Virus record (IMG/VR): IMGVR_UViG_3300046461_000319
Length of the DNA: 64,000 nucleotides
Direction: 5' to 3' (one strand)
Source of the DNA: a virus
How positions within the stretch are numbered: position 1 is the stretch's first letter; each line of letters starts with the position of its first letter. The position numbers and the translations under genes are program-made. A model generated the notes under the pieces. It saw only the letters and a list, made by a program, of their open reading frames with translations, did not search any database and had not been told where the DNA came from. Positions 5,988 to 49,155 of the stretch are shown one piece after another.

Positions 5988-5995
5988 GGGGGACA

Positions 5996-7019: not shown

Positions 7020-9970
7020 GCCAAATCGATGATGATCTAGACTTCGAAGCGTTGCTCGTGGACAAACAACAAGAGGCCCCGCCGACGGTGAAAGAAGCAG
7101 CACCCGTCGCGGCCCCTGCAGAGGAGGAGGAGGATCAACCAGACTGGATGGCTGATGAACTAGCCACCATTGAGAAAGCGGCACCCCTTCAACGGAAGCT
7201 TCTCGTAGAGGTGGAGGGCGATGACCCGCTCGATTTCCTTTCGAGCTCCGGGATCAAACCTGATCGCACGGTGCCCGACCTAAAAGAACCGTGGATGAAT
7301 CACCACAAGTTCACCCTGGTGACTTCGGTTGAACAGGTGAATCAGATCGTGGACGAGTGCATCCGGGCCGGTTCGTGTTCGCTGGACCTCGAGACTGAGG
7401 GGCTGGACAACCGGATTCAGTATCGAGCCGACAACTCACCTGAGACCGTGCACAAGATCGTGGGGTTCTGCATCTCGCACGATGGCAAGGAGGGGTTTTA
7501 CATTCCTGTTAGGCACACCCCTACTGACGGTGGGCCGGATCTGAATGTTAGACCCATCGAGCAGGTTGAGGCTGCTATTTCGCGGCTGTGCCACGCGGCC
7601 ATCCCGGAGGGCACGCCAGAGGACAAGGCGGCGGACCCGCTGTCTTACAAGTGCTCGCCGCCCAAGCTGGTCATCTATTTTTGGAATGCGCAGTTCGATC
7701 AAGAGTTTCTGTATCCAGTGACCGGGATCGATTGGTGGCATCCATCATCGTTTGAGGATGGCATGCTCGCGTCTTTTTGCATCTACGCGGGCGATAAGCA
7801 GCTGGGCCTCAAGCCCAAGGCTAAAGAGTTCCTTCGGGACCCCGATGGCAATCCGTACACGATGATCAAGCTGAAGGACCTGTTCTTCGGTCGAGCGAAG
7901 GACATTCGCTTCGCGCTCTTAGCGCCGGATGAGCCGGGTGTCTTGAGGTACGCCGGCTCGGATGCAATCTGCACTTACCTGCTCTGCAAGCTGCCGCGGA
8001 TCGTGCCGCTATGCCATGAGCGGCACGGGAACATCTACCGCATCGAAAAGCAAACCTCATGCGCGCTTCGTCCCATGGAGCGAGCTCGCATCCGCATCAA
8101 CCGGGAGCATGTTCGCGGGCTCCTTCTGGAGCAGGAGGCCATTAAGGCGGAGCTCGTAGAGAAGATCCGCCGATTCTCCATCGAAGCACGTGGCATGGAG
8201 GTCGACCCAAACTCCCCGAAGCAGCTGTCTGAGTTCTTGTTTGGGGAAAAGCCCGGTGGGCTCGACATCACGCCGAAGCCAGAGAAGAACGCCGCGAGCG
8301 GCCAGTACAAGACTGACGGCGAGACGCTCGAGCTGTTGGCCAAGGCGCCGAAAGCACCTACCATTCTGAAGGACATTGTTAGGTATCGAGAAGTCGATAA
8401 GTTCATCGGGACCTACCTATTAGGGCTCACCAACAACCCTGACGAGAACGATGAGATCCGTGTCTCATTCAAGCAGACCGGCGCCGCATCAGGACGATTT
8501 AGCGCACCGGCGGGTGAAGCCGACCAGGGGTACTCCGGGATACCCGTTCACGGGATCCCGAAGGACTCGGACCTCCGACGTGATTTCGTCGGGCGCCTGG
8601 GGTTCGCAGTACTCAAGGCAGATTATGCCGGACAAGAGCTACGCATCGGAACTAACGTGGCGGTCGAGAAGGCCTGGATCGAGGAGTTTTTGAAGGGATC
8701 CGGTGATCTTCACACGCTCACGGCTCGAGCGTTCTTCGGTAAGGAGGATGTTAGTAAAGAGGAACGAGGCATGGGGAAAGCGGCGAACTTCGCGCTTCTC
8801 TATGGTGGCGGGACCAAGGCGCTCATGGCTGCCACGGGCTGCGATGAAATGGAGGCCAAGCGGCGCAAGCATGCGTTCGACAAGGCTCTGCCGAATTTCG
8901 CCGCCTGGGTGAAAAAGCAACACCAGAAGGTGAAGGACCAGCTCGGGGTGACGACGGCGTTCGGGCGCTGGCTCTCTTTGCCGGACGCGAGGCACGAAGA
9001 CCGTGCGGTGCAGGCGGCAGTAGAGCGGCATGCGGTCAACTATCAGATCCAGGGTGCCGGCGCCGACATCATGAAGATTAGTCTCATCCTGCTCACCAAG
9101 AAGTTCCACAAGGAGGGCTGGCTCAAGAACGGGGGTGATGACTCTGTGCGAATGCTTCTAACCGTGCACGATGAAATTGTTTTCGAGGTGAGGTATGACC
9201 GCGTCGCGGAGGTGCTCCCCATCATTGTAGATCTGATGGAGTCCCCTTGGCGGTTGCCTAACAATCCGCGGTGGGTCGTACCTTTGATCGTTGAGCCACT
9301 CGTCGGGTTCAACTGGAAGTCGGGCTTTGCCGTCGAGCGAGCCAAGAAGGAGCGAGACATCAAGGAGAGCGAGATCGACCGTTACGAGAACGAGATCCCA
9401 CTCCGCAAGCATGAGGTCTTGATGAACGGGTTTGTGTACAGCACGACCCGCAAGGCTGAAAAGGACAAGGCCACGAAACAGGTGACCGAGGCCCCTGACC
9501 AGCAAGAGGTGCTCGAAGGGGATGTATTCAGGATCATCGATGCACCATGGCTCGTTGGCAAGGCGTTGCCGCCGACGCCGGGTCCAGGCTCTGGCGGGGC
9601 ACCGCCCGAGCCGAAGCCGGAAGCTCCAAAAGCTGTCTACGCAGAGCCGGTGCCTATTCGGGCGGCGGCCCAGCCAGTTCGAGCGGTCTCGCCGATTGGA
9701 GCCCCGCCGCCATGGCTCAAACGCGGGGAGCTCAAGCTGCGGATCGAAAAGCTCACCCTGCAGACGGCTGACCAAGTTTGCGATGTCATCGTCAGCACGA
9801 CTGACAGAGATGACGGGCTAGACCTTCATCTCACCGACGTGAGCGGGACCGTCAGTCTCTTCGGCCCCTGGATCTGCCCCGTCAACAAGAAACGCTTCAT
9901 GGATTGCCTTGGGAGGCTGAATCTTCTGTGCGAGGCGGAGAACGAATATGGCGCCCAAGAAGCGAGTTGA
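7016..9970 (+). CDS. polA: Family A DNA polymerase (3'-5' exonuclease + polymerase, no 5' nuclease)
   Basis: ExoI SLDLETEGL, ExoII FWNAQFD, ExoIII YAGSDA; motif A KADYAGQELRI, motif B RGMGKAANFALLYGGG, motif C LTVHDEIV. Confidence 0.95.
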   Translation: MSQIDDDLDFEALLVDKQQEAPPTVKEAAPVAAPAEEEEDQPDWMADELATIEKAAPLQRKLLVEVEGDDPLDFLSSSGIKPDRTVPDLKEPWMNHHKFTLVTSVEQVNQIVDECIRAGSCSLDLETEGLDNRIQYRADNSPETVHKIVGFCISHDGKEGFYIPVRHTPTDGGPDLNVRPIEQVEAAISRLCHAAIPEGTPEDKAADPLSYKCSPPKLVIYFWNAQFDQEFLYPVTGIDWWHPSSFEDGMLASFCIYAGDKQLGLKPKAKEFLRDPDGNPYTMIKLKDLFFGRAKDIRFALLAPDEPGVLRYAGSDAICTYLLCKLPRIVPLCHERHGNIYRIEKQTSCALRPMERARIRINREHVRGLLLEQEAIKAELVEKIRRFSIEARGMEVDPNSPKQLSEFLFGEKPGGLDITPKPEKNAASGQYKTDGETLELLAKAPKAPTILKDIVRYREVDKFIGTYLLGLTNNPDENDEIRVSFKQTGAASGRFSAPAGEADQGYSGIPVHGIPKDSDLRRDFVGRLGFAVLKADYAGQELRIGTNVAVEKAWIEEFLKGSGDLHTLTARAFFGKEDVSKEERGMGKAANFALLYGGGTKALMAATGCDEMEAKRRKHAFDKALPNFAAWVKKQHQKVKDQLGVTTAFGRWLSLPDARHEDRAVQAAVERHAVNYQIQGAGADIMKISLILLTKKFHKEGWLKNGGDDSVRMLLTVHDEIVFEVRYDRVAEVLPIIVDLMESPWRLPNNPRWVVPLIVEPLVGFNWKSGFAVERAKKERDIKESEIDRYENEIPLRKHEVLMNGFVYSTTRKAEKDKATKQVTEAPDQQEVLEGDVFRIIDAPWLVGKALPPTPGPGSGGAPPEPKPEAPKAVYAEPVPIRAAAQPVRAVSPIGAPPPWLKRGELKLRIEKLTLQTADQVCDVIVSTTDRDDGLDLHLTDVSGTVSLFGPWICPVNKKRFMDCLGRLNLLCEAENEYGAQEAS

Positions 9971-15587: not shown

Positions 15588-16340
15588 ATGCGTGTCGCGA
15601 CTGTGCAGACCTGCCCTGTGTTCATGGACCGGGCCGGCAACATCAAACGTTTGAGAGAGCTGGTGGTCCGTGCCGCCACAAACGGCGCGAAGCTTGTCGT
15701 GCTGCCAGAACTGGCGACCACTGGCTACTCGTTTATGAGCCGGGCTGACGCGGAGCTCAACGCCGAGATCCTGCAGTACCCGTCGGAGGCTCCGCACAGC
15801 AGTTTCAGCGTGTTCCGAGCTCTGGCGCGCAAGCACAATGTCTACATCGCATGGGGCTTGGTCGAAAAGTCGGCGGGCACTGGCAACCTATTCAACAGCC
15901 AAGTTCTCATGTGCCCCGACGGCGGTTTTGAGTCGTATCAGAAGTGCAACCTATTTGGCAATGACTGGCTATGGGCGAGCGAGGGGCGAAGCAATCCCCC
16001 CGTGCGCCGAATCGTGGTCGACGGCAAGGCCTATAAAGTTGGGCTGCTGATCTGCCGTGACGTGCGGGACAAGGCCGATAACCGCGACAATCTCTATGAG
16101 CCGGGGGACGCTGACGTGGTTGTGTATTCGGCGAACTGGGGCGACGGCGGATTCCCAGCAACGGCATGGATCAACTTCGCCAAGAACAACCGTACGTCGC
16201 TCGTGGTCTCGAATCGCTACGGCCATGAAGCCAACAACAACTTCGGGGAGGGCGGGGTGTGCATCATCCGCCCCGACCGATCTGTGACGTGTGAGGGGCT
16301 GGTCTGGAGCGAGGACTGCATCGTTTACGGGGATGTCTAA
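15588..16340 (+). CDS. Carbon-nitrogen hydrolase (nitrilase superfamily)
   Basis: Catalytic triad E (LPELATTGY), K (YQKCNL), C (LLICRD). Confidence 0.9.
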   Translation: MRVATVQTCPVFMDRAGNIKRLRELVVRAATNGAKLVVLPELATTGYSFMSRADAELNAEILQYPSEAPHSSFSVFRALARKHNVYIAWGLVEKSAGTGNLFNSQVLMCPDGGFESYQKCNLFGNDWLWASEGRSNPPVRRIVVDGKAYKVGLLICRDVRDKADNRDNLYEPGDADVVVYSANWGDGGFPATAWINFAKNNRTSLVVSNRYGHEANNNFGEGGVCIIRPDRSVTCEGLVWSEDCIVYGDV

Positions 16341-17500
16341 TGATAGGTGAATCTAGGGTGACCTCTGATGTTTCGGTAGCCGGTCGAGTGCTGGCTCGTT
16401 ACCTCCACGCAAAAGCGAAAGGGGTCTCGCTGGTCCCCGAGTACAAGGAGGCGCTGGAGAAGTTAGGGCAAGGTGATGCTGATCCGGCAGTGAGCTTCGC
16501 AAGGCGGGTAGTGGACCTCATTCTGCCCGGTGGCGATCGCGCGCCCTGGTTGGCGGGCCTCAGCGTTCAGAAAATGAACGCGGTCAACTCGCTCTATAAA
16601 GATGCGAGCCGGCTGCTCGATCAGGACGTTGCCATCCTGGCGCAGCGCAAAGGGGACGATGAGAAGCGGCTGGAGTGGATGAAGTACATGGCCTTTAACA
16701 TGGCCAAGTGGGCGAAGGACGTCCGCACGCTTGAGATCGCGTCGGCGCTTGGTGATGCGGAGAGCGAGATCCCGCATGGCCCATTCACGGTTATCCCCAT
16801 TCCGGGACTCACGAAAAAGCAAGTCGAGGAGGCGCTGGCGGCTTTTGACGCCGCCGCGGACAAGGTCCGGCAGAAGTTCCCCAAGGTTCTCTACGGCAAG
16901 GTTTTCCTCAGCAAGCACCTGAAGAAGGGCACGGCCGCTTGGTACGAGGCGGGTACCGACACCCTGGCGCTAAACGTCCTTGCCAAGAAGCGGTTCGACG
17001 ACGTCTATACGATCGTCCATGAATTGGGGCATCGGCACGACGCCAAGTTCGCGAGCGTAGAGGGCAAGCGAGAGTATTTTAGGCTCTCTACACAGAAGGT
17101 CTACGAGACCGTGCCCTTTGACGCCAAGCTACGTGAACAGCTGGCCGATGAGTGTGTAGAGATGGTCAAGAAGAAGGCTTTGGGCCAGCCTATGCCTCCG
17201 ATGTCTGCCAATCTTGTGATGTGGCTCAAGAGTCCGCACCCTCATCATAAGGGGGACGTGCGCGCTCTCACGACGTCATATTTACAGGGTAAGCTTGATG
17301 AGAAGGAGCTGCACGCGGCCATCAAGGGTAAGGAAGACGTCAGTCTTTCGACCGGTCAGGTCCTGCACGGACCTTTGGCGGTCACTCCATATGGAGCGAC
17401 GCATCCGAGGGAGAATTACGCGGAAGGCTTCGCACACTTTGTCTTGGGCATGGACATGCCGCCCGAGCTCGCCGCGATCATCGCTGCGGAAAGCAAGTGA
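16340..17500 (+). CDS. Zincin-like metallopeptidase-domain protein with RVLARY leader
   Basis: VHELGHRH and distal ENYAEGFAH; N-terminal VAGRVLARYLHAKA. Confidence 0.7.
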   Translation: MIGESRVTSDVSVAGRVLARYLHAKAKGVSLVPEYKEALEKLGQGDADPAVSFARRVVDLILPGGDRAPWLAGLSVQKMNAVNSLYKDASRLLDQDVAILAQRKGDDEKRLEWMKYMAFNMAKWAKDVRTLEIASALGDAESEIPHGPFTVIPIPGLTKKQVEEALAAFDAAADKVRQKFPKVLYGKVFLSKHLKKGTAAWYEAGTDTLALNVLAKKRFDDVYTIVHELGHRHDAKFASVEGKREYFRLSTQKVYETVPFDAKLREQLADECVEMVKKKALGQPMPPMSANLVMWLKSPHPHHKGDVRALTTSYLQGKLDEKELHAAIKGKEDVSLSTGQVLHGPLAVTPYGATHPRENYAEGFAHFVLGMDMPPELAAIIAAESK

Positions 17501-17519
17501 GCTCGGTGTAGCTAGGGCT

Positions 17520-18776
17520 ATGCCGGCTCGTTCAGAGAAACGCTGCAATTTCTGCAATCGCCCGCGCAACGAGGTTAAGAAGCTCATCTCTGCGGACGCT
17601 GACAGCGCCTGCATTTGCGATCGGTGCGTCGCCAATATCGGCGATGTCTTATCGAAGTCCATCGCGGCCGACAAAGTTGACGACAAGCCTCTCAAGAAGC
17701 CCCGCGAGATAGCGGCCTGCATCTCAGAGACCGTGATCAGCCAGGACGCTGCCAAGCAGGAAGTGGCGATTGCCGTCTATGAGCACTATCGGCGGCGAGA
17801 GATCCTACGGGCGGGCGGCTCTCTCATGATTGACGGTGAGCCCGTGGAGGTAGAGAAAAGCAACATTCTGATGCTGGGTCCATCGGGCTCGGGAAAGACA
17901 GCGATCGCACGCGCGGTCGCCAAGATGATTGACGTCCCGTTCTACGTCGGCGATGCGACCCGGCTAACCCAGGCGGGCTACGTCGGGGATGATGTCGAGT
18001 CCTTGCTCCAGGGGTTGATGGCGGCTGCGGGCAATGATGTTGAGCGCGCTCAGTGGGGGATCATCTTCATCGACGAAATTGACAAGCTGGCTCGCAAGTC
18101 GGGTCGCAACGCTTCTGGCTATCGTGATGTCTCCGGCGAAGGGGTGCAGCAGTCCCTCTTGAAGCTGATCGAGGGCTCGGTGGTCCCGATTCCGCGAGGG
18201 CGCGCTCCCAACTCCGGCGCCCGCGAGAGGGATATGATCGACACCACGAACATCCTCTTCATCTGCGCCGGCTCTTTTGCAGGGATCGAGGATGTGATCG
18301 CGCAGCGACTCAACAAGGGCGCCCGTCTTGGGTTTGGCAACGAGCTGCGGGCCGAATACAGCAAGACCGAGCTCTACCGTGAGGTGACGGTCGAGGATGT
18401 CCAAGAGTTCGGACTCATCCCCGAGTTAGTTGGGCGGCTTCCGGTGTTGACATCTACGCTAGAGCTCACGGAGGAAGAGCTGATCGAGATCCTCACGACC
18501 CCGCGGAGCTCGTTCTGTAAGCAGTTCCGAGCGCTGTACCTCTTGGATGGCATTGATCTCAGATTCGAGCCTGATGCGCTACGCGAGCTCGCCCGTCTTG
18601 CAAAGTTGCAATCCACGGGTGCACGGGCGCTGCGGACCATCCTCAAACGGGTACTTAAGCCCTATTCCTACGAAGCCCCCAATGACTCGGATATCATGGA
18701 GATCCACATCACAGCGGAAGCGGTTCAAACGCCCGGCAGTGGTATCGTAGTGCGCAGTCCCATCGCGACGGTATGA
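17520..18776 (+). CDS. clpX: ClpX-like AAA+ unfoldase
   Basis: Zn finger CNFC...CDRC, GPSGSGKT, DATRLTQAGYVGDDVE, DEIDK, RDVSGEGVQQSLLK, LGF loop, PELVGRLP. Confidence 0.95.
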   Translation: MPARSEKRCNFCNRPRNEVKKLISADADSACICDRCVANIGDVLSKSIAADKVDDKPLKKPREIAACISETVISQDAAKQEVAIAVYEHYRRREILRAGGSLMIDGEPVEVEKSNILMLGPSGSGKTAIARAVAKMIDVPFYVGDATRLTQAGYVGDDVESLLQGLMAAAGNDVERAQWGIIFIDEIDKLARKSGRNASGYRDVSGEGVQQSLLKLIEGSVVPIPRGRAPNSGARERDMIDTTNILFICAGSFAGIEDVIAQRLNKGARLGFGNELRAEYSKTELYREVTVEDVQEFGLIPELVGRLPVLTSTLELTEEELIEILTTPRSSFCKQFRALYLLDGIDLRFEPDALRELARLAKLQSTGARALRTILKRVLKPYSYEAPNDSDIMEIHITAEAVQTPGSGIVVRSPIATV

Positions 18777-18806
18777 CGCCTAGCCCTTTTATCTGCTGCT
18801 CTGGGT

Positions 18807-19385
18807 ATGAGCGTGCTGTCCGACCGAGTGCTGCGTCGATTTCTTGAAGCCGGGCGTGCGAAGTCGGCTCCCGCGAAAGTGGAGCCGTATTTCAAGAAAG
18901 TGAAGAAGCAGAACCCTGACTATTCTGACTCTCAAGCGTGGGCGACGGCCTGGTCCATCTACTGCAAGCACAAGAAACCAAGCGACCCATCGTGCCACCA
19001 GGATGATTACTTAGAGGGTCGATCCAAGAAGGCCAGCCCCGCGTATGACAAGAAACGCATGAGTTTGCTCTTGGTGTCCGACGGCCCGCTGCCGATGGCG
19101 GTCAACCGTGAGATTGCTCGCGAGCATATCACGATTCAGAATCTGGCCCCCTATGAAGAGGCTGACATCCCTCTGAAGATCTTGGGTACGGAGAGTCACG
19201 CACCGGCGGAAGCCGAGATGAGTGAAACGCGGCTCGATCTTGAGTATCCCGTCGGCAATGGGGATTCTCCCGCCGATGTGGCTAGCCTAGTGCGTCTAGC
19301 GCTGGACAATGTTGCTCGCAAGCATGGCATTAGAGTGGAGCCATGTGCGTCTAGCTACCATCCGAGACCACGTTTGGCCAAGTAG
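18807..19385 (+). CDS. Hypothetical two-module protein with RVLRRF leader
   Basis: LSDRVLRRFLEA leader; small QAWATAWSIYCK domain; KKAS junction; second domain. Confidence 0.65.
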   Translation: MSVLSDRVLRRFLEAGRAKSAPAKVEPYFKKVKKQNPDYSDSQAWATAWSIYCKHKKPSDPSCHQDDYLEGRSKKASPAYDKKRMSLLLVSDGPLPMAVNREIAREHITIQNLAPYEEADIPLKILGTESHAPAEAEMSETRLDLEYPVGNGDSPADVASLVRLALDNVARKHGIRVEPCASSYHPRPRLAK

Positions 19386-19417
19386 CTCCGGTCATTGCTT
19401 CCGGTGTAGAAGGTCCC

Positions 19418-20251
19418 ATGTCGAAACCTCCTAGGAGCGGCGTTGTAGAGACGGTCCCTTACAGCCTCTCTCGTTATACGGATCTTCCTGCGGCGAAGTG
19501 GAGTTGGTTTGAGAGCTGCCTAGCCGCTGAGCAGATGATAGCGTTCGATTCGAAGACTGGCGCCCCTAGCGTCTGGTCCCTTGCCCCCGAGGAAACCCTG
19601 GCGCTTGTCTTCTGGACGAAAAACCCGACCAACCTGATCGCTAGTCAACTCAGGCTGAAGGGATACAACGTTGTGATTCACATGACAGCGACTGGTTGGC
19701 GCGAGGTCGAAAAGGGGACGCCCACGATCAATGAAGCTGGGCGGCTGCTGGTTGAGGCCGTGAAGGCCTTCGGTAACGTCCACTGGCGATTCAGCCCGAT
19801 CCCGCTGCTGTCTACCCAGATGGTTCTCGAGCGGTTCAGGTACCTACTGGAGTACGCCCACCGGGCCGGTCGCCGCGAGGTCTTTGTCTCATTTCTTCAG
19901 CCGAACGATTCAATCCCAGAGACGCGCAGTTGCTCCGAGCGCTTCGAGCTCCTGAATCGTCTGGCAGAGATTGCGGCGCCGGCTGGCATTCAGGTGATGT
20001 TGTGCAAGGACGACCGATCTTTTGATGATTGGCAGGGGGCGCAGTTTCTCCTTGCCCCATGTGTGCCGGCTTCTGATTTCTCACGTGGCGGCCTAGCGCT
20101 TGAGTCGTGCGAGTGTGTCGCGATGGTCGACCCCTTCACGTTGAACGAGTCCTGCCTCTATGGTTGCCAGTACTGCTATGCCGGCGACAAGTCTCTGGCA
20201 CCTAAGAAGCGGAACACAAATCGCGGGTTGACCGTGATTCGGGGACATTGA
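19418..20251 (+). CDS. DUF1848-like (radical-SAM-related) protein
   Basis: SRYTDLPA, VFWTKNP, HWRFSPI, C-terminal CLYGCQYCYA. Confidence 0.7.
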   Translation: MSKPPRSGVVETVPYSLSRYTDLPAAKWSWFESCLAAEQMIAFDSKTGAPSVWSLAPEETLALVFWTKNPTNLIASQLRLKGYNVVIHMTATGWREVEKGTPTINEAGRLLVEAVKAFGNVHWRFSPIPLLSTQMVLERFRYLLEYAHRAGRREVFVSFLQPNDSIPETRSCSERFELLNRLAEIAAPAGIQVMLCKDDRSFDDWQGAQFLLAPCVPASDFSRGGLALESCECVAMVDPFTLNESCLYGCQYCYAGDKSLAPKKRNTNRGLTVIRGH

Positions 20252-20462
20252 CCGCTCACTTTGTTTTATGGCCGTGCGGCAGTAGAAGGCAGTGATCGAA
20301 TCTTGGCCAGTATTTCGGAACCCAGACGGGGGCCGATTGGCGATGACGATGACTAGCCAAACAATAACGTAGCCATAGTGGCGCCGTTGGGATCACTGGC
20401 AACGCTGTTGCCTTGCTTGATGCCGCGTGCAAAGACACTGGCGTTCTTGGAGTAGTGTTGCT

Positions 20463-20744
20463 ATGAAACTAGACCTTGACCTTGACAATCTCCGGAGTGA
20501 CTCCATAGATTTTACCCAAGCAGAGGCAGAAGAAGCTATCTCTGTCAAATCTGCCTCTGCCATGATTGACCATCTTAAGACTCTGCATTGTCGCGAGTGT
20601 GGGGATGCCATCTTTCCGGCTTCCCACGAGCAGCGCCGACTTGCAGGGGTCCTGTATTGCCGAATGCGCCTTGCCTGTGAAGGTATGCACGAGACCCGGA
20701 TCGTCTTTCTGGTCTCGGACCTCCAGAACAAGGCTGTTGAGTAA
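20463..20744 (+). CDS. Hypothetical small Cys-containing protein
   Basis: ATG at 20463; CREC...C...C. Confidence 0.5.
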   Translation: MKLDLDLDNLRSDSIDFTQAEAEEAISVKSASAMIDHLKTLHCRECGDAIFPASHEQRRLAGVLYCRMRLACEGMHETRIVFLVSDLQNKAVE

Positions 20745-20749
20745 TCCTC

Positions 20750-21187
20750 TTGAGTTTTGACGTAGGTATGTCTTGCGGATGCCAAAATACACCCTGTGCT
20801 TGTGGTCCTTGTGGTCCTAACGCGGGGTTTCCTCCGGGGACCGGGCTTGGTACCGGGACCCGTTGCGATCGTTACCAGCCGGGGCTGAGGAATGTGTGGG
20901 TTGAGCGCGGCTGTACGCCCAACGATGTCACAGCACCCGGGGTCTGCCTGCTGGATACGATGAGCGATGCGCAGATCATCCACTCGTTGGAGAGAGATGA
21001 TCAAGCTAGGGAGGACCTCTTAACGGTCACCTCTGACCCCGCTTTGTTGGAACTGGCAAGGACAGTCCCTCGTCTGCCGACTGTCGAGGAGGCGGACGTT
21101 GAGCAAGCCTTGCTCAATCAGCCAAACAACTCCGGCTCCATCCCGTTCTACTCGCTCTTTCGCGGACAGCCGCCGTTTGCTCAATGA
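20750..21187 (+). CDS. Hypothetical protein, Cys/Gly-rich N-terminus
   Basis: MSCGCQNTPCACGPCG. Confidence 0.55.
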   Translation: MSFDVGMSCGCQNTPCACGPCGPNAGFPPGTGLGTGTRCDRYQPGLRNVWVERGCTPNDVTAPGVCLLDTMSDAQIIHSLERDDQAREDLLTVTSDPALLELARTVPRLPTVEEADVEQALLNQPNNSGSIPFYSLFRGQPPFAQ

Positions 21188-21203
21188 CCCTCTGGAGAGC
21201 TCA

Positions 21204-21605
21204 ATGAATCGTCACGCGCGGCGTGCCGCGAAAAGCAAAACGCCACACGCCGAAGTCTCAAAGACGCTTGAAGGGATTCGCGAGTTCGCCAGCATCGCGG
21301 AAGAGTTCAAGCCCTACCTTGCCCAGATCGGTGCACTGCAGGCTCAACTCGAGAGTGCCACGCAAATCCTGCGTGAACTGGAAAACATCCCGCAAGATTT
21401 GCGCGCGCTTCAAGACGAGAACCGAGCTCTGCGGGGCGAGCTCAAATTCCATGCGGCAGTGTTCAGGCGAATGTTTGCCCGCGGGATGGATGTGCCCCTG
21501 GACACGATCGTTTCAATGGAGACCGAAATTCATAATGCCCTCAAGACCGTTCAATCCGCCCCCGAAGGCTCAACGGAAGATTCAGGCGCCCGTACGCAAC
21601 CTTGA
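21204..21605 (+). CDS. Hypothetical coiled-coil protein
   Basis: ATG after ggagag; MNRHARRA (SEC-C-tail-like) start; heptad pattern. Confidence 0.6.
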   Translation: MNRHARRAAKSKTPHAEVSKTLEGIREFASIAEEFKPYLAQIGALQAQLESATQILRELENIPQDLRALQDENRALRGELKFHAAVFRRMFARGMDVPLDTIVSMETEIHNALKTVQSAPEGSTEDSGARTQP

Positions 21606-21618
21606 TTGGTACCGACTC

Positions 21619-21792
21619 ATGCAGTTGGTGATTCGGCGCGCTGAAGAACTCCAAGATCGGCAGTTGCCCGGCCTTCGCAGGGCGCTTGCGGAGGGGAAGG
21701 CCGAACAAGCCCTACGCCGGCTCGGCATAATTCATGTAGGGGACATTGAGCGTGAGTTCCCCCTTTCCACAGGTCCGTCAAGCCGAGCCTGA
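21619..21792 (+). CDS. Possible small hypothetical protein
   Basis: MQLVIRRAEELQDRQLPGLRRAL..., fills the gap. Confidence 0.3.
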   Translation: MQLVIRRAEELQDRQLPGLRRALAEGKAEQALRRLGIIHVGDIEREFPLSTGPSSRA

Positions 21793-21999
21793 TCACGTCA
21801 ATAGTGAGTCGATCTTCGTAGAAGTCATTCCTCAACAACAACCCGTGCACGTTGCTGGGTTACATTGATCGTGTTAATCTCGGCTAGGATAAGTCGAGTA
21901 AATAAGTAGGACCAAACCCCACCTTGTCACTCGTGCTTATCCAGTGCCCTACCGTTGAAGGTCTTCGTCTGGAAAACACGCAAATGGAGATGCGTACCA

Positions 22000-22755
22000 A
22001 TGTCAGAAAGTGTCCCGTCACCGAACATCTCTGAGGAGATCACTCGTCTTCGAACCCTGCTATCGAAACAGCTGAATGACGCCAAGGCGCGTCTCAGTGT
22101 GGCTCAGGCAGGATTGTCCGCAGCGCAAACGGAGCTGGAGGCGGCTACCGTTGACGCGGACATGGCTGAAAAGCAGTTCGCGGATTACAACGTTCTGTTT
22201 CAAAAGCAGCCCGCGGCTGCCGCGAAGGGCAACGCCAAGCCCGGCCCCGTCGCCAAGTCCGGAGCTAATGCGACGCCTGCAAAGGCTGCAAAGGTTGTCG
22301 TTCAGAACAAGCCGAAAGGTGCGCCAGGTCGCCCGAAGCAGGCGGCTGGTGGATCCATTGCTGGAACCGTTCCTGAGCGCCTCGCGTATGTCATGGGCCG
22401 GCGGATCTGGACAGCTCCGGAGCTGGAGGCAGCCTTAGAGACAGCCGGTGTCCATCTGAAGTCCGGCAACGTGAAGAGCTACATTTCGACCACGCTGAAT
22501 TCCAGCATGAAGAACGCAAAGGGGCCGGATGGCACCGAGCTCAAGGGTACCAATGGGAAGCCCATCAAGGTCCACGTGTTCAAGAACGTAGATCGCGGGC
22601 ACTACCGTGTGGCGACGGCAGAGGATACCCAGATCGAGCTGGCGGAGATTCGCGTGCGTGAAGCGGCCGGCGACGATGAAGGCGAGACTCCGGCTGACGA
22701 ATTGTTCGCCAAGAGGGGCATCGATGTTCGTGGGGCTATGGCCGCGAACCACTGA
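22000..22755 (+). CDS. Coiled-coil, Lys/Ala-rich, probable winged-helix DNA-binding protein
   Basis: SD ggag; WTAPELEAAL...YISTTL...FKNVDRGHYRV. Confidence 0.6.
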   Translation: MSESVPSPNISEEITRLRTLLSKQLNDAKARLSVAQAGLSAAQTELEAATVDADMAEKQFADYNVLFQKQPAAAAKGNAKPGPVAKSGANATPAKAAKVVVQNKPKGAPGRPKQAAGGSIAGTVPERLAYVMGRRIWTAPELEAALETAGVHLKSGNVKSYISTTLNSSMKNAKGPDGTELKGTNGKPIKVHVFKNVDRGHYRVATAEDTQIELAEIRVREAAGDDEGETPADELFAKRGIDVRGAMAANH

Positions 22756-42325: not shown

Positions 42326-42493
42326 CGTCCGGCGTCATATCGTTACACCGCACCCCTTCGAGGTAGGTGGCGGCAGCTTCGCAGCGACGCGGGACTAACA
42401 CAGACAGTAGTTGTCTCTTCCATAGGCTTGAAGATTGGCTCCCCCTAAATGGTATTATTTATGTGCCGGGGAGCGCCGGAGGGGAGAGTTGTT

Positions 42494-44509
42494 GTGCGAC
42501 ATCTGTTGTATGCGTGTCTTCTGGTTTCTGCCGCTGCGTGTACTGCAGCGCCTTCAGAGGAAGCGCCACCCAATGAACAGCATCGAGTAGAGGCTGGTGC
42601 ACCAGCGCCTATGAGTGGCGGTAGCCATAGCGATGCCACTGCCGGCAAAAGCGCAGCAACGACCGTAGCGGGCTCGGGCGGCGCTGGTGGTGCTGGGTCA
42701 GCAAGTAAAGCAGGGTCAGGCGGTGTGGGCGGAACCAAAGCTGGAGCTGGTGGCGTCAAGGCTGAGGCCGGGGGTACGAGCGGATCTGGCAAAGCGGGGT
42801 CCGGTGGATCTGAAGCAGGGGCTGGAGGCGCGCCGGTCATCATCGAAGATGCTGGCCAGGATGCAGAGGTCGATGCATCGACTGATGCAGCTCAAGACAC
42901 GCCAGAATGCGTGAACGGCGACGCGCACTGCGATTACCTTGATGTGGTCACGTGCTCCGCTGGTGCTTGGACGACTACCGAGACGTGCCCATACCTGTGC
43001 AACGACGGAGTCTGTAGCGGAAGCTGTATGCCAGGCGCGAAACAGTGCTCGGCCTTTGGCGCGCAGACATGCACCGCACAAGGAGCGTGGGTCACAGATC
43101 AAAGCAGCTGCACTCCGAACGCTCGTAAGTGCAATGGGACCGTCGCGCTCGAGTGCAACACTTGTGGGCAATGGGTGACGGCGGAGATCTGCGCTAACGT
43201 ATGCTCCGCCGGTTCATGCACCGGCACGTGTGTGCCTGAGTCGCTGCAGTGCTCCGGGCTCAACGCTCAGAGCTGCGACGATTCGGGCAACTGGCAGACG
43301 ACGGTGACGTGTCCGTACGTCTGCTCGAATGGCGGCTGCTTGGGCGTGTGCACGCCCGGCGCCACACGATGCTCGGGCGCGAACATCCAGACTTGCGGGC
43401 CGACTGGGCAGTGGCAGACGGCGCAAGCGTGCCCCTCGAAAGCCAACGCGACCGTGAGCTGCTCGATGAACCAGTGCACGTTCGCTTGCAACGCTGATTA
43501 CCAGGACTGCAACGGCGATGCGGGTGATGGATGCGAAGTCAGCCTGCAGACCGACTCCAATAACTGCAACGCCTGCGGTCGAACCTGCTGTGGCGGTGGA
43601 GCGTGTAGCGCTGGTACCTGCCAGCCTGCAACCGTAGTACCCGGCAACTGGACCTACTTCGAAATGGATGCCACCAACTACTACACCGTCAGCCCAACCG
43701 ACGTGGCAACCATCAAGAAGACACCGCGTGCGGGTGGGGCCACTACAGACTTTGTGCCCAGTACTGTCTCCAATGGTCGGGTATTGCAGCTCCTATTGAT
43801 CGGTACAGACCTTTACTGGACAGCTCAGAACCCCTCCACAAACAACATAGATATCTACGCTACCTCAGTCAGCGGTGGGGTTACGACCCCTGTGACAAGT
43901 TCCTCCAGCGTGTGGAACATGATTTTCGACGGCACGGACCTCATTTGGTCAAAGAACGGCAGCCAAGGAATTCAATGGAAAACCCTGGCCTCAAACGCTT
44001 CAGGCGTGACCCTCAACTCAGCGAATAGCTACTGGGTGGCGAGCGACGGTGAATATCTCTACTACGCGGAGTCTTCCATGATCTACAACTCCTGCGGAGG
44101 AAGCTCCCAGGTCGCGGCATACACATCAACCTTGAAGAAAGTCCCTGTCCATGGGGGCACACCCAGCCTGTTAGACGCGGGTTGCGGCGAATACACTGAC
44201 TTAGCAATCGTCGGCTCGAACCTATACTACGGTGTTACACGAAGATCTTCTGCGCTGGATGGCAGGTATACGGTGCCGTTAGCCGGGGGGGGTGCACCGA
44301 CCAAGATTGGCTATGGTGGTGTTTCACTTGTGAGCGACGAGGCGAATCTCTACTACTGCAACAGTGTATTGTTCAAAAAGCCAATCAGTGGTGGCACCGC
44401 CGTTTCACTCGTGCCCTCTCAGTACGGGTACTGCCGCGATCTGAAACTCGACGGGCAGTGTGTCTACTACAACAGCGGCCCGATAATGACCGTGAACAAA
44501 TCGCCGTAA
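42494..44509 (+). CDS. Myxobacterial-type lipoprotein: Gly-rich linker, Cys-rich repeats, C-terminal beta-propeller
   Basis: Lipobox SAAAC; AG/GS-rich linker; repeated C...W....C...C..G.C...C; CNGDAGDGCE..LQTDSNNCNACGRTC; D..N.Y[WY]-type propeller blades. Confidence 0.8.
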   Translation: MRHLLYACLLVSAAACTAAPSEEAPPNEQHRVEAGAPAPMSGGSHSDATAGKSAATTVAGSGGAGGAGSASKAGSGGVGGTKAGAGGVKAEAGGTSGSGKAGSGGSEAGAGGAPVIIEDAGQDAEVDASTDAAQDTPECVNGDAHCDYLDVVTCSAGAWTTTETCPYLCNDGVCSGSCMPGAKQCSAFGAQTCTAQGAWVTDQSSCTPNARKCNGTVALECNTCGQWVTAEICANVCSAGSCTGTCVPESLQCSGLNAQSCDDSGNWQTTVTCPYVCSNGGCLGVCTPGATRCSGANIQTCGPTGQWQTAQACPSKANATVSCSMNQCTFACNADYQDCNGDAGDGCEVSLQTDSNNCNACGRTCCGGGACSAGTCQPATVVPGNWTYFEMDATNYYTVSPTDVATIKKTPRAGGATTDFVPSTVSNGRVLQLLLIGTDLYWTAQNPSTNNIDIYATSVSGGVTTPVTSSSSVWNMIFDGTDLIWSKNGSQGIQWKTLASNASGVTLNSANSYWVASDGEYLYYAESSMIYNSCGGSSQVAAYTSTLKKVPVHGGTPSLLDAGCGEYTDLAIVGSNLYYGVTRRSSALDGRYTVPLAGGGAPTKIGYGGVSLVSDEANLYYCNSVLFKKPISGGTAVSLVPSQYGYCRDLKLDGQCVYYNSGPIMTVNKSP

Positions 44510-44516
44510 GCGGTCG

Positions 44517-47500
44517 CTAGATCGCAACGCTACGCGGAAAAGGCGGCAGGGCAGACCCAGTCGCCTTTTTTTCGTGCAGCTTATCGATGATGGTGCCGTC
44601 CTTGAGGTAGCTGTCCTCCATTGAAGGCGCGAGATACTGAGACTTGAGGGTGGAGGCTTCGTGCCCGAGCTCGTCACTCACGAGCTCGAGCGCCTCCTTG
44701 AACTCTTCTTTGAGCTGCTTCTCGCGCTCCGCCTTGTCCGTGGGAAGCGTGCCCTTGCGCACCTTCTTGAGTGCCTTCTGCATGAGCGAGTTCGCAGCCA
44801 GGCCGCGCAGATCCTTCGCCGTGATATCAAACGGCGCCAGGAACTCGTTGACTTTCTCGGCTGTGACCGTCGCGTCGTCACCTGAGAACAGGCAGCCGTC
44901 CTTGCCCTCCGCCTCTTTGTAGGCGCGCCGAAGGGCCTTCAACACGTAGGGAGTGCTGACGGTCTTCTCGTGCTTGACGCCGCTCTTGCCGACGTATTTG
45001 ATCGTCGCCGACCCGGAGCCGAACGACACGTGCTTCTTCTTCCAACCGGTCACGCCATAGTGCGGATCCCCCGAGTCGTTTCGATTGCCCTTGGCTGACT
45101 CCTCGTTGCCCACACGCTCATGGGTCTCATCGATGAGTGCGATCGCGAGGGCGACGAGCCGAGTCTCGCGATCCTCGGATCCGAGATTCGCCTTGACCTT
45201 GGACCGCAGCTTCTCGACCTTGCCCTTGAACTTCTCGAGACGCTTGGCCTTCTCTCTGTTCCGGGTTTCGACCTGCTTTTCCGAGTAGACGTAGACCTCG
45301 GTTGTCCCCTTGCCGTTGGCTTTGGGCACTTTTTTCTTCTCTTGGTAGCGTGCTGCAACCTTGACGGCCGGCAGCGTGTCGGGAGTCAGTGAGGTGTCAT
45401 CGTCCAGCAACGCGTCAGCCATCGAGTCGTTGTCGTCCCAGCTGAAAGCTTGGCCCTCTTGGGGCAAGTTGAGCTCAACCCCAAAGTCATCGGCCAGGTT
45501 CTGGATATCACCCAGGGTCACGGCAGCCCGTTGATAGCGAGCTGCGACCTTCAGAGCCGAAAGCGTGCTGTTATTGTTTGGTCCCATCAGTTCACCTCGT
45601 ATGCCACCGCTCGCCCGCCGTCGTGAGGCTATCTTGGCGCCACCCAGCTTGCAGATCTTGGCGAAGAACTCTCGTGTCCATGGCCCAACCGCGCGAGGCC
45701 CATGCAACACCCACGCTTTGAACACCTCAGCGAACGCCTCCACGGGGCTCGTGTTGGCATAGTCGGAGATCTCTTCGAGCTGAACTTTCTCTCCGAGATT
45801 GTTCCGTTCGAGGCGAGCCATGTACTCCGTCTCGACAAACGCTACCGAGCTTTCCCCAAATGCGATTAGCGGCGTTTCCGCAAGTACGCGAAACTTTGCA
45901 GCCTGACTTTCGTCACGTGCGTGAGACAAGACAAGCTTCAGTAGGTCCGGTCGGTCGATCGTCTTAGCTAAGCCCTTCGATGCAACCTGCTTAGAAACCA
46001 AGTCAAAGAACGTCTCGACATCCTCCTTGGTGATCTCGACAGATCGGCTACCCATTACCTCTTCCCACTCATTGCGAGCAGTCATCGGCAAGGCCTTGAA
46101 GTAGAAGCGGTGCCCGCACTCATGCGTGAACGTGCCGTGACCCGAGCCGGCACCAACGAGGCCAAGGGGGTACATGATGAGCTCGTCCCGCTCGACCATG
46201 AAGCGGCCCATGGTGTCCCACTCTGACTTCTTGACATCGAAGTCAACGGTAACGGTTAGACCACGCACGGCGGCTGCAAATCCCGCTCGTTTGACCTGAT
46301 CGACGTTAGACTTGAGCCGGCGCAGAAAGGCCTCTAAAGCCACTTCAGCTCCAGTCTCCCCGGAGCGGCCAGTGTTGTGAATCACAACCCCAACGCCGCT
46401 AACCTCAAAGTGCTCAACGGGCTCCCGCCTCTGGACCTTGCCCTCTGGCCTCGTATCCAGGTACTCGGTGATCGCTTTGAACGCCTTGTTGGCGGCGGCC
46501 TGGTAGCGTTTGATTGTGCGATCACGATCGGCCCTGAAACGACCCCAATCAGGGGTCCGACTGGGCCGTATCACCGGAAACAGCATACCGGCGTCCAACT
46601 CGTAACGGACGTCCCAAGCAAGCTTGGCGATCTGCTTCTCCATTGGGGACCACGGGTGATCGCTGGTCTCCTTGGGCAGCAGTTCTTTGTACGCCCACTC
46701 CTCGAAGTTCAGCCGGAAGCTTGTGAACAACTGTTGAGCCTGGTCCCAGCCGGTGCGATCGCCAGCATCTGAGTCAGATGTTGGGGGCTCGATGTCTTTG
46801 TAGATCTTGGTCATGACCTTGAGGTCACGTTTCCAACGATCCACGGCAGACTTGTCTATAGCAGAGTCGAAGCGAGCCAAGACTTGACGTGTGAGTGCCC
46901 GGTTGTCTGACTGATAGGCCAACTTGATCTCTCCCGGCAACACTACTTTCAACCACTCGCGGACTTGCGGATGAACGGCCTGTGGGCCGTACGCGACCAG
47001 GAGGGCAATCGCCTCTGCGAACGCCTCATCTGGGTTTTCGTTGGCGTAGGGGGTGATGGGCGTATGCATCATCCGGAGCTCAGAATCCCCGTGGGTCTCC
47101 AGGTATTTCTCAAGGCCCTCGCGCGTCCAATCATCCGCGTCGACAAATCCCTTGGGCATCCTGACGTAGCCGTCCAAGATGGCCTGTAGCTGCATGCCGA
47201 GCACAGGATCATCGTGGAGCGCCGCATTCAACCATTGGACAAACCCCGGAGTTGTCCGGGGCCACTTGGCGAGCAATTCACTCAGCTTGATCGGCTTCAT
47301 GTCTTGCTTGATGGCTGCGATCCAATACGCGCGAGCCGGATGCGACATCCAATCCATGCCGAAGTAGTGGCCGGTCTCGTGCGCGATCACATAGACGATC
47401 TTCTCCAGATCTTTCATCGCCTTGTGATAGAGCGTGATCTTGCCGTCGCCGTAGTGGCCCGAGGCATAGGTCACCCCGAACATCACATCCATCGGGAGCT

Positions 47501-48089
47501 TGTGCCGCAGCATCTGTGGCAGATAGCGCTTCGCCTTCTGCTGATAGGTCTTCAGCGCATCCGTGAGTGTGTTGAGAAAGGCCCTGTGGGTCGGGTCGGC
47601 CTCGTCATACTCATGAAAAATCATGTGGAAGCCGTCAATGCTGACGTTCTGCTCGGATGGTAGCGCCATCTCTGGCTTCAGATCGCGCTTCTTGTCTTTG
47701 TGGAGCTTGTCGAGCCACGCACCAACATCAGGCAAGCCATTGAGTGCCTTCGTGACCTCGTCCTTCCAACGTCGCTTCACGCGTGGCCACATCTCATAGT
47801 CGGTGCCCAGCGCGGTGATGTGAGTATCGAGCTCGAATAGCGGCCAGGCCTTTTTGCGAAAGACCTCCATTTGCCGGTCCACATCCTTGGCCGTGTACTC
47901 CACCCGGTCCCGCAGGTACCGCATGAGGTCTCGATAGCCGCCCTTTGCTAGATTGGCCTTGTACCAAGCGCCAACACTTTTGCGGAACTTCTCGTAGTCC
48001 GCTTCGCTGTTGACGCGATCGTAGTTGCCAAGGATCTGCTCAACATCTTGAGCAATCTCACGAATCCGAGTCGAATCGAGGGGGCGCAT
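44517..48089 (-). CDS. Polyprotein: zincin (HETGH) + zincin (HECGH) + DNA topoisomerase IB
   Basis: TopIB pentad ERVGN (R), VGKSG (K), DLRG (R), LGHE (H), SQYL (Y); zincins with EAFAE; VLARF/KVAARY at junctions. Confidence 0.85.
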   Translation of the reverse strand: MRPLDSTRIREIAQDVEQILGNYDRVNSEADYEKFRKSVGAWYKANLAKGGYRDLMRYLRDRVEYTAKDVDRQMEVFRKKAWPLFELDTHITALGTDYEMWPRVKRRWKDEVTKALNGLPDVGAWLDKLHKDKKRDLKPEMALPSEQNVSIDGFHMIFHEYDEADPTHRAFLNTLTDALKTYQQKAKRYLPQMLRHKLPMDVMFGVTYASGHYGDGKITLYHKAMKDLEKIVYVIAHETGHYFGMDWMSHPARAYWIAAIKQDMKPIKLSELLAKWPRTTPGFVQWLNAALHDDPVLGMQLQAILDGYVRMPKGFVDADDWTREGLEKYLETHGDSELRMMHTPITPYANENPDEAFAEAIALLVAYGPQAVHPQVREWLKVVLPGEIKLAYQSDNRALTRQVLARFDSAIDKSAVDRWKRDLKVMTKIYKDIEPPTSDSDAGDRTGWDQAQQLFTSFRLNFEEWAYKELLPKETSDHPWSPMEKQIAKLAWDVRYELDAGMLFPVIRPSRTPDWGRFRADRDRTIKRYQAAANKAFKAITEYLDTRPEGKVQRREPVEHFEVSGVGVVIHNTGRSGETGAEVALEAFLRRLKSNVDQVKRAGFAAAVRGLTVTVDFDVKKSEWDTMGRFMVERDELIMYPLGLVGAGSGHGTFTHECGHRFYFKALPMTARNEWEEVMGSRSVEITKEDVETFFDLVSKQVASKGLAKTIDRPDLLKLVLSHARDESQAAKFRVLAETPLIAFGESSVAFVETEYMARLERNNLGEKVQLEEISDYANTSPVEAFAEVFKAWVLHGPRAVGPWTREFFAKICKLGGAKIASRRRASGGIRGELMGPNNNSTLSALKVAARYQRAAVTLGDIQNLADDFGVELNLPQEGQAFSWDDNDSMADALLDDDTSLTPDTLPAVKVAARYQEKKKVPKANGKGTTEVYVYSEKQVETRNREKAKRLEKFKGKVEKLRSKVKANLGSEDRETRLVALAIALIDETHERVGNEESAKGNRNDSGDPHYGVTGWKKKHVSFGSGSATIKYVGKSGVKHEKTVSTPYVLKALRRAYKEAEGKDGCLFSGDDATVTAEKVNEFLAPFDITAKDLRGLAANSLMQKALKKVRKGTLPTDKAEREKQLKEEFKEALELVSDELGHEASTLKSQYLAPSMEDSYLKDGTIIDKLHEKKATGSALPPFPRSVAI
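44538..44572. terminator. Bidirectional intrinsic terminator
   Basis: aaaaggcg...cgccttttttt between convergent genes; overlaps the last codons of the polyprotein. Confidence 0.7.
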
Positions 48090-48096
48090 CGGCATA

Positions 48097-48417
48097 TCAA
48101 GGCACCCCGGACAGAGCTTCAAACCGTGCAGAGATCTTTAGGGCGAGTAGGGTGGCAGTCTTTTTCTTCTTGGCTTCTTCAGCCTCAAGCCGCTTGGCTT
48201 CGGTAATGCTCGCCGGGTCCATCAGCCGGACATTGAGCACCCCCATCTGACGGGCCTTTTTTCGGCCGCGAGGGATTGGGGAAATCTCAATCTTCACAGC
48301 TCCGGACTTCTCATCTTTCCAGAGCTGGGTGACACGACCCTTTTTGTTCTTGAACCGTCCGAAGTGAACGTAATCGCCAACTTTGGGTAACACGATCTGT
48401 ACTGGGGCGTCTGCCAT
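48097..48417 (-). CDS. KOW/SH3-like small protein
   Basis: KVGDYVHFGRFKNKKGRV; C-terminal LKISARF motif. Confidence 0.6.
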   Translation of the reverse strand: MADAPVQIVLPKVGDYVHFGRFKNKKGRVTQLWKDEKSGAVKIEISPIPRGRKKARQMGVLNVRLMDPASITEAKRLEAEEAKKKKTATLLALKISARFEALSGVP

Positions 48418-48495
48418 GCCTATCTCTCAGCAGTACCCGTTTGATAAGATCGCTAGCGAGAACGTACACCGACCGCCGCGGTGTAGCCCCGGGGC

Positions 48496-49155
48496 ATGGA
48501 CCACTCGATTCCTCCCGCCCTCCGGGCACAGATCGACGCAGCGGACTTCATTTGCGGCTCCGATGAGTGTGGGCTTGGCAGCTGGGCTGGGCCTCTCTCG
48601 GTATGCGCTGCCGTGGTGCCCCGTGGCTGGACTTGGCCAGGGGTTACCGATTCCAAGAAGCTGACTAGGCAGGCTCGCGAGCGCGTCTACCCCCAGCTGA
48701 TCGGGCAGATCACCTACTCCGTGGTCCATGTCAGCCCTCAGGAATTCGATGCTAAGGGCGCGGGACCTATTCTTATAGAAGCTCACGCGAGGGCAATCAG
48801 CGGCGCCCTCAAGGCCCACCAAGGGAAGGGCTACAGGGATACGCCTCTATGCATCATTGACGGTCTACGACCGGTTCTGGCGGCGACTCCGCTCCCCAAA
48901 GCTGACTTATTGATCCCAGCGGTCTCAGCCGCCTCGATCATCGCCAAGGTCCGGCACGACTGGGCCATGGGTGAGCTCGACCGGCAGTTACCGGGGTATG
49001 GGTTCTCTAAGAATGCGGGGTACGGGACCCCGCAGCACCGTGCCGCCCTTGCGCAACTCGGCGTGAGTAAGGCGCATCGCCGCAGCTATCAGCCTATGAG
49101 CGGGATGGTCTCGAGCGGCGACGATGTATTCACGATGCTCTGCGGGCTTGAGTGA
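48496..49155 (+). CDS. rnhB: Ribonuclease HII
   Basis: GSDECGLGSWAGP, DSKKL, IIDG, VSAASIIAKV, GYGTPQH, HRRSY. Confidence 0.9.
   Translation: MDHSIPPALRAQIDAADFICGSDECGLGSWAGPLSVCAAVVPRGWTWPGVTDSKKLTRQARERVYPQLIGQITYSVVHVSPQEFDAKGAGPILIEAHARAISGALKAHQGKGYRDTPLCIIDGLRPVLAATPLPKADLLIPAVSAASIIAKVRHDWAMGELDRQLPGYGFSKNAGYGTPQHRAALAQLGVSKAHRRSYQPMSGMVSSGDDVFTMLCGLE

Follow-up and report, generated by a model that had tools for sequence, protein, structure and literature searches.

Introduction

Phage "polyvalent" proteins gather several unrelated enzymatic domains in one polypeptide, with a zincin-like metallopeptidase as a recurrent hub that is sometimes present in more than one copy. It has been proposed in general terms that such proteins are packaged and injected, and that their zincins act as processing enzymes (PMC5512222). 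Position among the head genes (the head block) has been read as a sign of packaging (PMC9503650; PMC5512222), and a survey of jumbo phages noted stand-alone topoisomerase IB (TopIB) in a few cultured representatives (PMC7824862). Here we describe a gene from a 64,000-nt stretch of viral DNA (IMG/VR record IMGVR_UViG_3300046461_000319; the window hereafter) that encodes two zincin modules followed by a TopIB, with a short peptide motif, the tag, at each junction. Sequence comparisons indicate that the gene belongs to a large and hitherto undescribed phage family in which enzyme modules are shuffled and which is located mostly among head-assembly genes. The fusion itself is of less interest than the tag system and the occurrence of a single-copy TopIB linked to head genes.

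The window protein resembles polyvalent proteins in combining disparate activities (peptidase twice, plus topoisomerase), a comparison already made, rightly, in the first-pass annotation of this DNA, and in its duplicated zincin. The partner domains Nudix, 2H/LigT, ParB, and InPase of polyvalent proteins overlap with those found in the family described here, and the packaging and injection proposal matches the head-gene proximity of many relatives. Unlike the polyvalent proteins of PMC5512222, however, the window protein has no MuF or ArdC-N anchor, its zincin is a ~400-aa two-part module without a Pfam model, and the gene lies outside the head block. In that paper, TopIB is not among the domains discussed, the word occurring in the reference list only, and no short module-bounding tag was found in the passages searched.

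A second parallel is provided by the capsid targeting sequence of T4 and by the ejection proteins of SPN3US/phiKZ-like phages, in which short N-terminal leaders mark head-loaded, protease-trimmed enzymes (PMC9026906, PMC7411985). Similarly, where TopIB is a stand-alone gene in the head block, its tag occupies residues 5-12. T4/phiKZ-like systems cut after Glu and use a prohead serine protease, whereas the tag motif is different, occurs also at C-termini and internal junctions, and has a zincin as its candidate protease. The literature searched contained nothing describing this family or the tag, and topoisomerase goes unmentioned in the huge-phage paper. The first-pass statement that TopIB had not been seen in this architecture thus holds for the searchable papers; it fails for the sequence databases, in which the family is large.

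An intact gene for a zincin-zincin-TopIB protein

The gene occupies positions 44517-48095 of the minus strand and encodes 1192 aa plus the stop codon. It lies in an open frame spanning 44517-48122 (-), which would yield 1201 aa if counted from TTG 48122, the earliest possible start. ATG 48095 is likely the start of the gene, as inferred from the same start and length (1192 aa) in a protein with 95% identity (P0002) encoded on a 433,843-bp contig, and residue numbers are counted from this codon. The single frame of ~1190 aa proposed in the first-pass annotation was therefore borne out, with a correction at its beginning, since the start given there (48089) corresponds to the second Met.

All on the minus strand, the protein comprises zincin module 1 (46911-48095; residues 1-395), tag 1 (46869-46895; residues 401-409) in the linker between the zincin modules, zincin module 2 (45615-46868; residues 410-827), tag 2 (45528-45554; residues 848-856), an acidic spacer (45372-45527; residues 857-908), tag 3 (45339-45365; residues 911-919) followed by a Lys-rich stretch, and the TopIB part (44520-45338; residues 920-1192). 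The zincin-zincin-TopIB architecture is kept in P0002, P0003, P0005, and P0007. Of the words sampled from the gene, contigs of three soil or rhizosphere runs from other studies contain 79%, 58%, and 33%; over the covered parts, these contigs differ from the gene only by substitutions, apart from one contig without the spacer; neither frameshifts nor stop codons split the frame, as judged from these contigs where they cover the gene. Chance can be excluded because the architecture is conserved, the soil contigs are free of frame breaks, and the tag is ~20-fold enriched over shuffled sequences (see below). PHROGs and NCBIfam searches of the main protein returned nothing useful. Collectively, genomic context and relatives attest to a phage origin: the source is an uncultured huge phage from soil, and the gene is intact.

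A short tag bounds shuffled modules

The tag at the module borders approximately follows the pattern h-x-x-[RK]-[VI]-A-[AS]-R-[YF], which confirms the ARY/ARF motif previously noticed between the domains. Across 208 related proteins we counted 117 tags versus 5.4 +/- 2.4 in shuffles (~20-fold), all from related proteins and so not independent events. Of these tags, 35 lie within 25 residues of the N-terminus, 11 within 25 residues of the C-terminus, and 37 directly upstream of a zincin or TopIB core, with just 2 inside these cores, though the cores make up 51% of the residues. In 35 of 56 proteins the TopIB core comes after a tag-like motif, and tag 3 plus the Lys-rich stretch make up the conserved N-terminal segment that leads into the TopIB of this family. 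In the structural model of module 1, linker residues 392-405 have predicted local distance difference test (pLDDT) values of 45-61; the modules would be connected by flexible linkers, each with a tag of this kind.

The acidic spacer, with 13 Asp/Glu and no Lys/Arg in ~52 aa, agrees with the short acidic module reported earlier and behaves as an optional module between tags 2 and 3. It is missing from P0007, and in a soil contig (run X4, depth 2.5) 129 bases (45367-45495) are replaced by 3, a net in-frame deletion of 126 nt that takes out just the spacer and leaves both tags in place. Elsewhere, TopIB lies beside zincin open reading frames (ORFs) in other gene orders (L017, L021), single proteins are tagged at both ends (L021, L025, L041), and where the fusion is split, either of the two pieces, upstream or downstream, may keep the tag. 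By these comparisons, the window fusion represents one of several arrangements of a conserved group of tagged genes, which in other genomes are separate, neighboring, or reordered.

Eight of 100 N-terminally placed zincin modules (P0067, P0071, P0072, P0074, P0082, P0087, P0116, and P0118) begin not with the tag but with another short leader, approximately M-[TS]-Y-[SD]-Y-D-R, which is of the class that the first-pass annotation had seen on other genes of the window. Leaders therefore look interchangeable.

TopIB lies within the head block of most relatives

Searching IMG/VR with the TopIB part alone retrieved 30 loci, which correspond to 21 distinct ones. In 16 of these 21, homologues of terminase, portal, or prohead protease map within 10 kb on the same strand, and at least seven distinct loci present terminase, TopIB immediately behind it, and then portal (L015, L019, L026, L029, L042, L044, and kin). 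The remaining 5 have no nearby head genes; among them, L017 and L021/L022 are those with TopIB beside zincin-family ORFs. This TopIB-only search revealed no fused zincin module at the 13 of 21 loci where the TopIB ORF was resolved, and an adjacent one at 2 of 21. Tags in head-block loci sit on cargo-slot genes and their small neighbors, and never on terminase, portal, or protease. Fusion partners in the relatives include Nudix, LigT, CCA-type nucleotidyltransferase (NTase), PAP2, HAD, and ParB domains.

Among phage records, a close TopIB was found only in LR745208.1 (L004), a 485-kb uncultured phage with the order terminase, transposase, portal, HAD_SAK_1-tag-TopIB and, further on, prohead protease. 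The transposase gene between terminase and portal spans 1511-2794, and a homing endonuclease gene (8220-9080) separates the TopIB gene from that of the prohead protease. We also considered the tag as a general capsid address in this genome and rejected it, given a strict genome-wide count of 9 versus 6.7 in shuffles. On a 203-kb contig (L003) the order is terminase (with an intein), portal, LigT, and a 1749-aa protein joining a CCA-type NTase to TopIB. Two genes of this contig, those for the large subunit of terminase (3722-6961) and for a head-block protein of 1755 aa (16851-22118), contain intein or Hint-type insertions.

The window TopIB corresponds to the enzyme whose gene, in most relatives, is part of the head-assembly block. 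Five related huge-phage genomes have exactly one TopIB of this family each, and that of the window is probably the only such enzyme of its phage. In a complete 398-kb genome, the TopIB match (G003:C1:142352-143125) apparently contains one in-frame TGA. TopIB is always beside zincins, fused or adjacent, in the subclade of the window; this adjacency and the remote position of the gene place the window in a subclade whose single TopIB left the head block.

Two zincin modules resembling lethal factor and PPEP proteases

Module 1 pairs an N-terminal helical bundle (residues 1-138) with a downstream catalytic domain of lethal-factor/PPEP-like type, in which HExxH occupies residues 239-243 (47367-47381) and Y350..E357 lies further downstream (47025-47048). 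The equivalent elements of module 2 are HExxH at residues 658-662 (46110-46124) and Y779..E786 (45738-45761). Both HExGH metallopeptidase-like domains of the first-pass annotation thus retain an intact HExxH and Y-x6-E, the spacing of lethal factor and PPEP-1. Residues H239, E240, H243, Y350, and E357 are invariant among 50 stand-alone members of the zincin family. A profile of the first 405 aa matched 527 cluster representatives, with E <= 1e-30 for 287, and nearly all of the 150 best matches listed span the whole ~400 aa. Family members are either stand-alone proteins of 400-440 aa or modules within proteins of up to 3182 aa; 22 of 146 representatives bear TopIB, while most stand alone or have other partners.

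The AlphaFold2 (AF2) model of module 1 built on a 50-sequence alignment reached a pLDDT of 93.5, and a run with a 4-sequence alignment (pLDDT 59.6) was set aside in its favor. An exhaustive structural search with this model ranked lethal factor (1yqy_A) first, with a Z score of 10.4; PPEP-3 (Z 8.8), PPEP-2 (Z 8.7), the N-domains of lethal factor and edema factor, and Certhrax-N scored between 7.6 and 8.8 over residues ~150-390. Foldseek against the PDB yielded nothing at E <= 0.001 (best E 0.015), and its weak matches were all gluzincins. The bundle of residues 1-138 attracted generic structural matches alone, peptide-binding helical bundles included (not significant). Pfam PF07737 (ATLF) matched neither the window protein nor any of the 50 family members, and the relative P0023 showed a sub-threshold match to it (E 2e-4). 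An ESM Atlas look-up retrieved unnamed clusters only.

Module 2 fits a local hidden Markov model (HMM) of the 50 stand-alone members from end to end, over residues 404-827 and HMM positions 6-412 (independent E-value 7e-26), and comparison of the C-terminal parts of the two modules by BLASTP gave an E of 5e-8. The HMM match and the shared catalytic set therefore argue for two paralogous, apparently active modules in one protein. Both would be lethal-factor/PPEP-like zinc endopeptidases, as anticipated from their sequences and the model. With MEROPS family M34, which includes lethal factor and PPEP, they have in common HExxH, the Tyr, and the Glu with Y-x6-E spacing. They differ from M34 in being only ~14-16% identical, in the ~110 residues between HExxH and the Glu, where a subdomain is inserted, in their own N-terminal helical bundle, and in belonging to a phage protein without toxin context. 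Neither Pfam nor the structural search made a DNA-binding element evident in the zincin module. Extra domains of P0005, P0006, and P0065 looked like ADP-ribosyltransferases by eye, an assignment dropped after Pfam gave no confirmation.

A minimal TopIB and a candidate internal start

The TopIB part matches Pfam PF01028 over residues 943-1159 with 86.2 bits (cut-off 23.7; E 2.8e-24), and its nearest solved structure is the Deinococcus radiodurans TopIB 2f4q (E 3e-8). Residues R994, K1037, R1097, H1145, and Y1154 align on R137, K174, R239, N280, and Y289 of 2f4q, the catalytic residues of that enzyme; the R-K-R-H-Y pentad previously described as complete is indeed so in this alignment, with the catalytic Tyr1154 encoded at 44634-44636. 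The catalytic core and the five catalytic residues are thus shared with the D. radiodurans enzyme, with those of vaccinia/variola (2h7f, 1a41), and with the TopIB of cultured jumbo phages such as PaBG. The alignment begins at residue 77 of the 2f4q chain, and the N-terminal DNA-binding domain therefore appears replaced by the tag, the Lys-rich stretch, and a hairpin: bacterial and poxvirus enzymes have that domain, whereas only ~25 residues separate tag 3 from the first conserved strand in the window TopIB. The TopIB of the cultured jumbo phage PaBG is distant (30% identity over 64% of the query, E 0.01). Unlike the bacterial, poxvirus, and PaBG enzymes, the window TopIB is embedded in a multi-domain protein.

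A putative internal ribosome-binding site and start codon map at 45585-45598 (-), with GAGGTGA at 45592-45598 ending 4 nt ahead of an ATG at 45585-45587 (Met837). Among 31 in-frame ATGs, this one alone is preceded by a Shine-Dalgarno sequence, which substantiates the internal start suggested by the first-pass annotation. On a 453-kb contig (L001), TopIB has its own gene behind that for a zincin-zincin-X protein; this second gene encodes 340 aa consisting of tag, acidic spacer, tag, and TopIB, and starts at the codon homologous to Met837, with AAGGTGA upstream. Separate production of TopIB is therefore reasonable, and the TopIB part of the window protein may also be made on its own from the internal start.

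Neighboring genes

Upstream of the main gene lies a small co-oriented gene (48097-48417, -) for a 106-aa protein with a C-terminal tag at ~48112-48144, its stop codon being one base away from ATG 48095. In P0004 this small gene forms an in-frame fusion with a zincin, and in L001 another domain comes after it. A 131-aa ORF at 48427-48822 (-) was judged spurious, as it overlaps the Pfam-supported RNase HII gene (48496-49155, +); the operon formed by the small tagged gene and the main gene would then begin at 48417, divergent from RNase HII. On the other side, one contig each of the independent runs X3 and X4 diverges one base beyond the TopIB stop (from 44516 leftwards), both carrying the identical alternative sequence. 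The convergent neighbor gene (42449-44509, +), which encodes a 686-aa protein without a family match, thus varies between strains.

Other window genes encode SNF2, DnaB-like, PolA, AAA, ClpX-like, DHH, RNase HII, Dam, and DnaJ-like proteins. The gene for the ClpX-like ATPase (~17520-18776), with a zinc finger and an AAA domain, is 26 kb from TopIB and is flanked by genes with N-terminal tags (16340-17500 and 18807-19385). A ClpX-like gene maps 10-19 kb from TopIB in 4 of 4 remote-type genomes searched and is absent from LR745208.1. This ATPase might be a reader of the tag.

Possible functions of the tagged protein

We give about an even chance to the reading in which the window gene encodes a modular polyvalent-type protein that is gathered through its tags, loaded into the head, and cut by its zincins, its TopIB then relaxing phage DNA. 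According to this model, the full protein, or the TopIB part made from the internal start, would assemble with other tagged proteins via the tag and be loaded into or onto the head; the zincin modules would cut near the tags, and the freed TopIB would relax supercoiled phage DNA in an ATP-independent manner, either as the genome is ejected or early in infection. The sequence data show the gene, its domains and catalytic residues, the border tags, the existence of split as well as fused genes, and the synteny with head genes in relatives; head loading, cleavage, and when and where the protein would act are inferences. The head-block position of the relatives, the fusions to effector- and repair-type domains, and the published logic of polyvalent and head-linked proteins point to a head-associated role, of which cargo is the most likely form; virion delivery and cleavage at the tags are plausible. 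The tag may go further and be a portable address code, shared by a large clade of huge phages and working at protein ends as well as between fused modules, for a kit of enzymes (TopIB, lethal-factor-like proteases, RNA-repair-type enzymes, and small unknown proteins) that is loaded into the head and later released by its own zincins. This extension, which we regard as rather unlikely, would entail a targeting peptide and a maturation protease distinct from those of T4 and phiKZ, and a move of the kit, in the window's subclade, from the head block to beside the ClpX-like ATPase as a possible handler.

Several observations weigh against a head-loaded, self-cleaving protein. No head gene was found among the ORFs scanned in the window, and TopIB is ~145-170 kb from the portal gene in three remote-type genomes, one of them the complete 398-kb genome. 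The "virion-delivered" of the first-pass annotation is accordingly supported at the level of the family, by the 16 of 21 relatives with TopIB in the head block, and not for the window itself, given its replication-type neighborhood and a subclade remote from the portal. Pfam, PHROGs, and NCBIfam disclosed no known head-anchoring domain (MuF or other) in the main protein. As to the protease, no Pfam peptidase model scored above threshold for the window protein or the 50 zincin members, and generic helical-bundle rows reached Z 9.3 in the structural search, about one Z unit under lethal factor. In LR745208.1 only a handful of proteins are tagged. Tags at extreme C-termini and on stand-alone proteins are unexpected for a pure cleavage site. 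For the earlier term "polyprotein", the tags at module borders and the genes split at these same borders would be indirect evidence, but tags also sit at the N- or C-termini of stand-alone proteins, and a cleavage site explains this distribution no better than a docking or address peptide would.

The tag could indeed be a docking or assembly helix that is never cut, the protein working as an intact multi-enzyme unit. Tagged proteins would be held together or on a common receptor, rendering fusion and fission of the modules equivalent. This explanation, a serious contender that we place just short of even, accounts for the 35 N-terminal and 11 C-terminal tags, where cutting gains little, for proteins tagged at both ends (L021, L025, L041), and for split fusions that leave the tag on either piece. 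The small-residue core and amphipathic pattern of the tag would suit helix packing, and the N-terminal bundle of the zincins matches peptide-binding bundles among other generic ones, albeit not significantly. However, the receptor is hypothetical, the tag sits in a low-confidence linker of the AF2 model, and lethal-factor-like zincins are sequence-specific endopeptidases. Lethal factor accepts a basic P1 and an aromatic or aliphatic P1', which would suit a cut between the Arg and the Tyr/Phe of the tag. Nor does docking exclude cleavage, both being functions of the capsid-targeting leader of T4; we rate docking or assembly roughly on a par with cleavage as the role of the tag, and a tag could serve both ends.

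We consider it unlikely, if worth keeping in view, that the protein is not packaged at all and that TopIB acts inside the cell, as a swivel while a genome of >400 kb is replicated and transcribed, with cytoplasmic zincins acting on host or phage proteins. The replication and nucleotide-metabolism neighborhood in the window, the distance of the subclade gene from the portal, and the single TopIB per genome, which suits housekeeping, are all in line with such a role, as is the mention of TopIB among the DNA-topology enzymes of cultured jumbo phages (PMC7824862); it leaves unexplained why the same single-copy TopIB lies inside the head block of most relatives and why it is fused to effector- and repair-type domains. 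The terminase-TopIB-portal order at the seven or more loci listed above would rather suggest a packaging helper that relieves twist at the terminase-portal motor as a very long genome is packed, any presence in the head being a by-product. We deem this improbable, since Nudix, LigT, CCA-type NTase, HAD, and zincin fusions have no obvious part in packaging and the window's subclade has the gene away from the motor genes. In eukaryotes, the proteases SPRTN/Wss1 remove trapped Top1-DNA complexes, and the constant company of TopIB and zincins in the window's subclade could likewise reflect a self-repair pair in which the zincins clear trapped TopIB-DNA covalent complexes. This is very improbable: TopIB accompanies just 22 of the 146 zincin representatives, the TopIB-only search uncovered no fused zincin at the 13 resolvable loci and an adjacent one at 2 of 21, the zincin module has no evident DNA-binding element, and its fold is of the lethal-factor/PPEP rather than the SprT type.

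Significance

The ~400-aa zincin, with its 527 cluster representatives, and the minimal TopIB constitute sizeable protein families with no Pfam model or a generic one. Through the tag, the question of which proteins huge phages load or assemble becomes accessible to simple tests, and the tag could also serve as a portable peptide directing foreign proteins. If the family is indeed head cargo, huge phages would bring an ATP-independent DNA-relaxing enzyme together with sequence-specific proteases into the cell, which would be a new class of activity among injected proteins.

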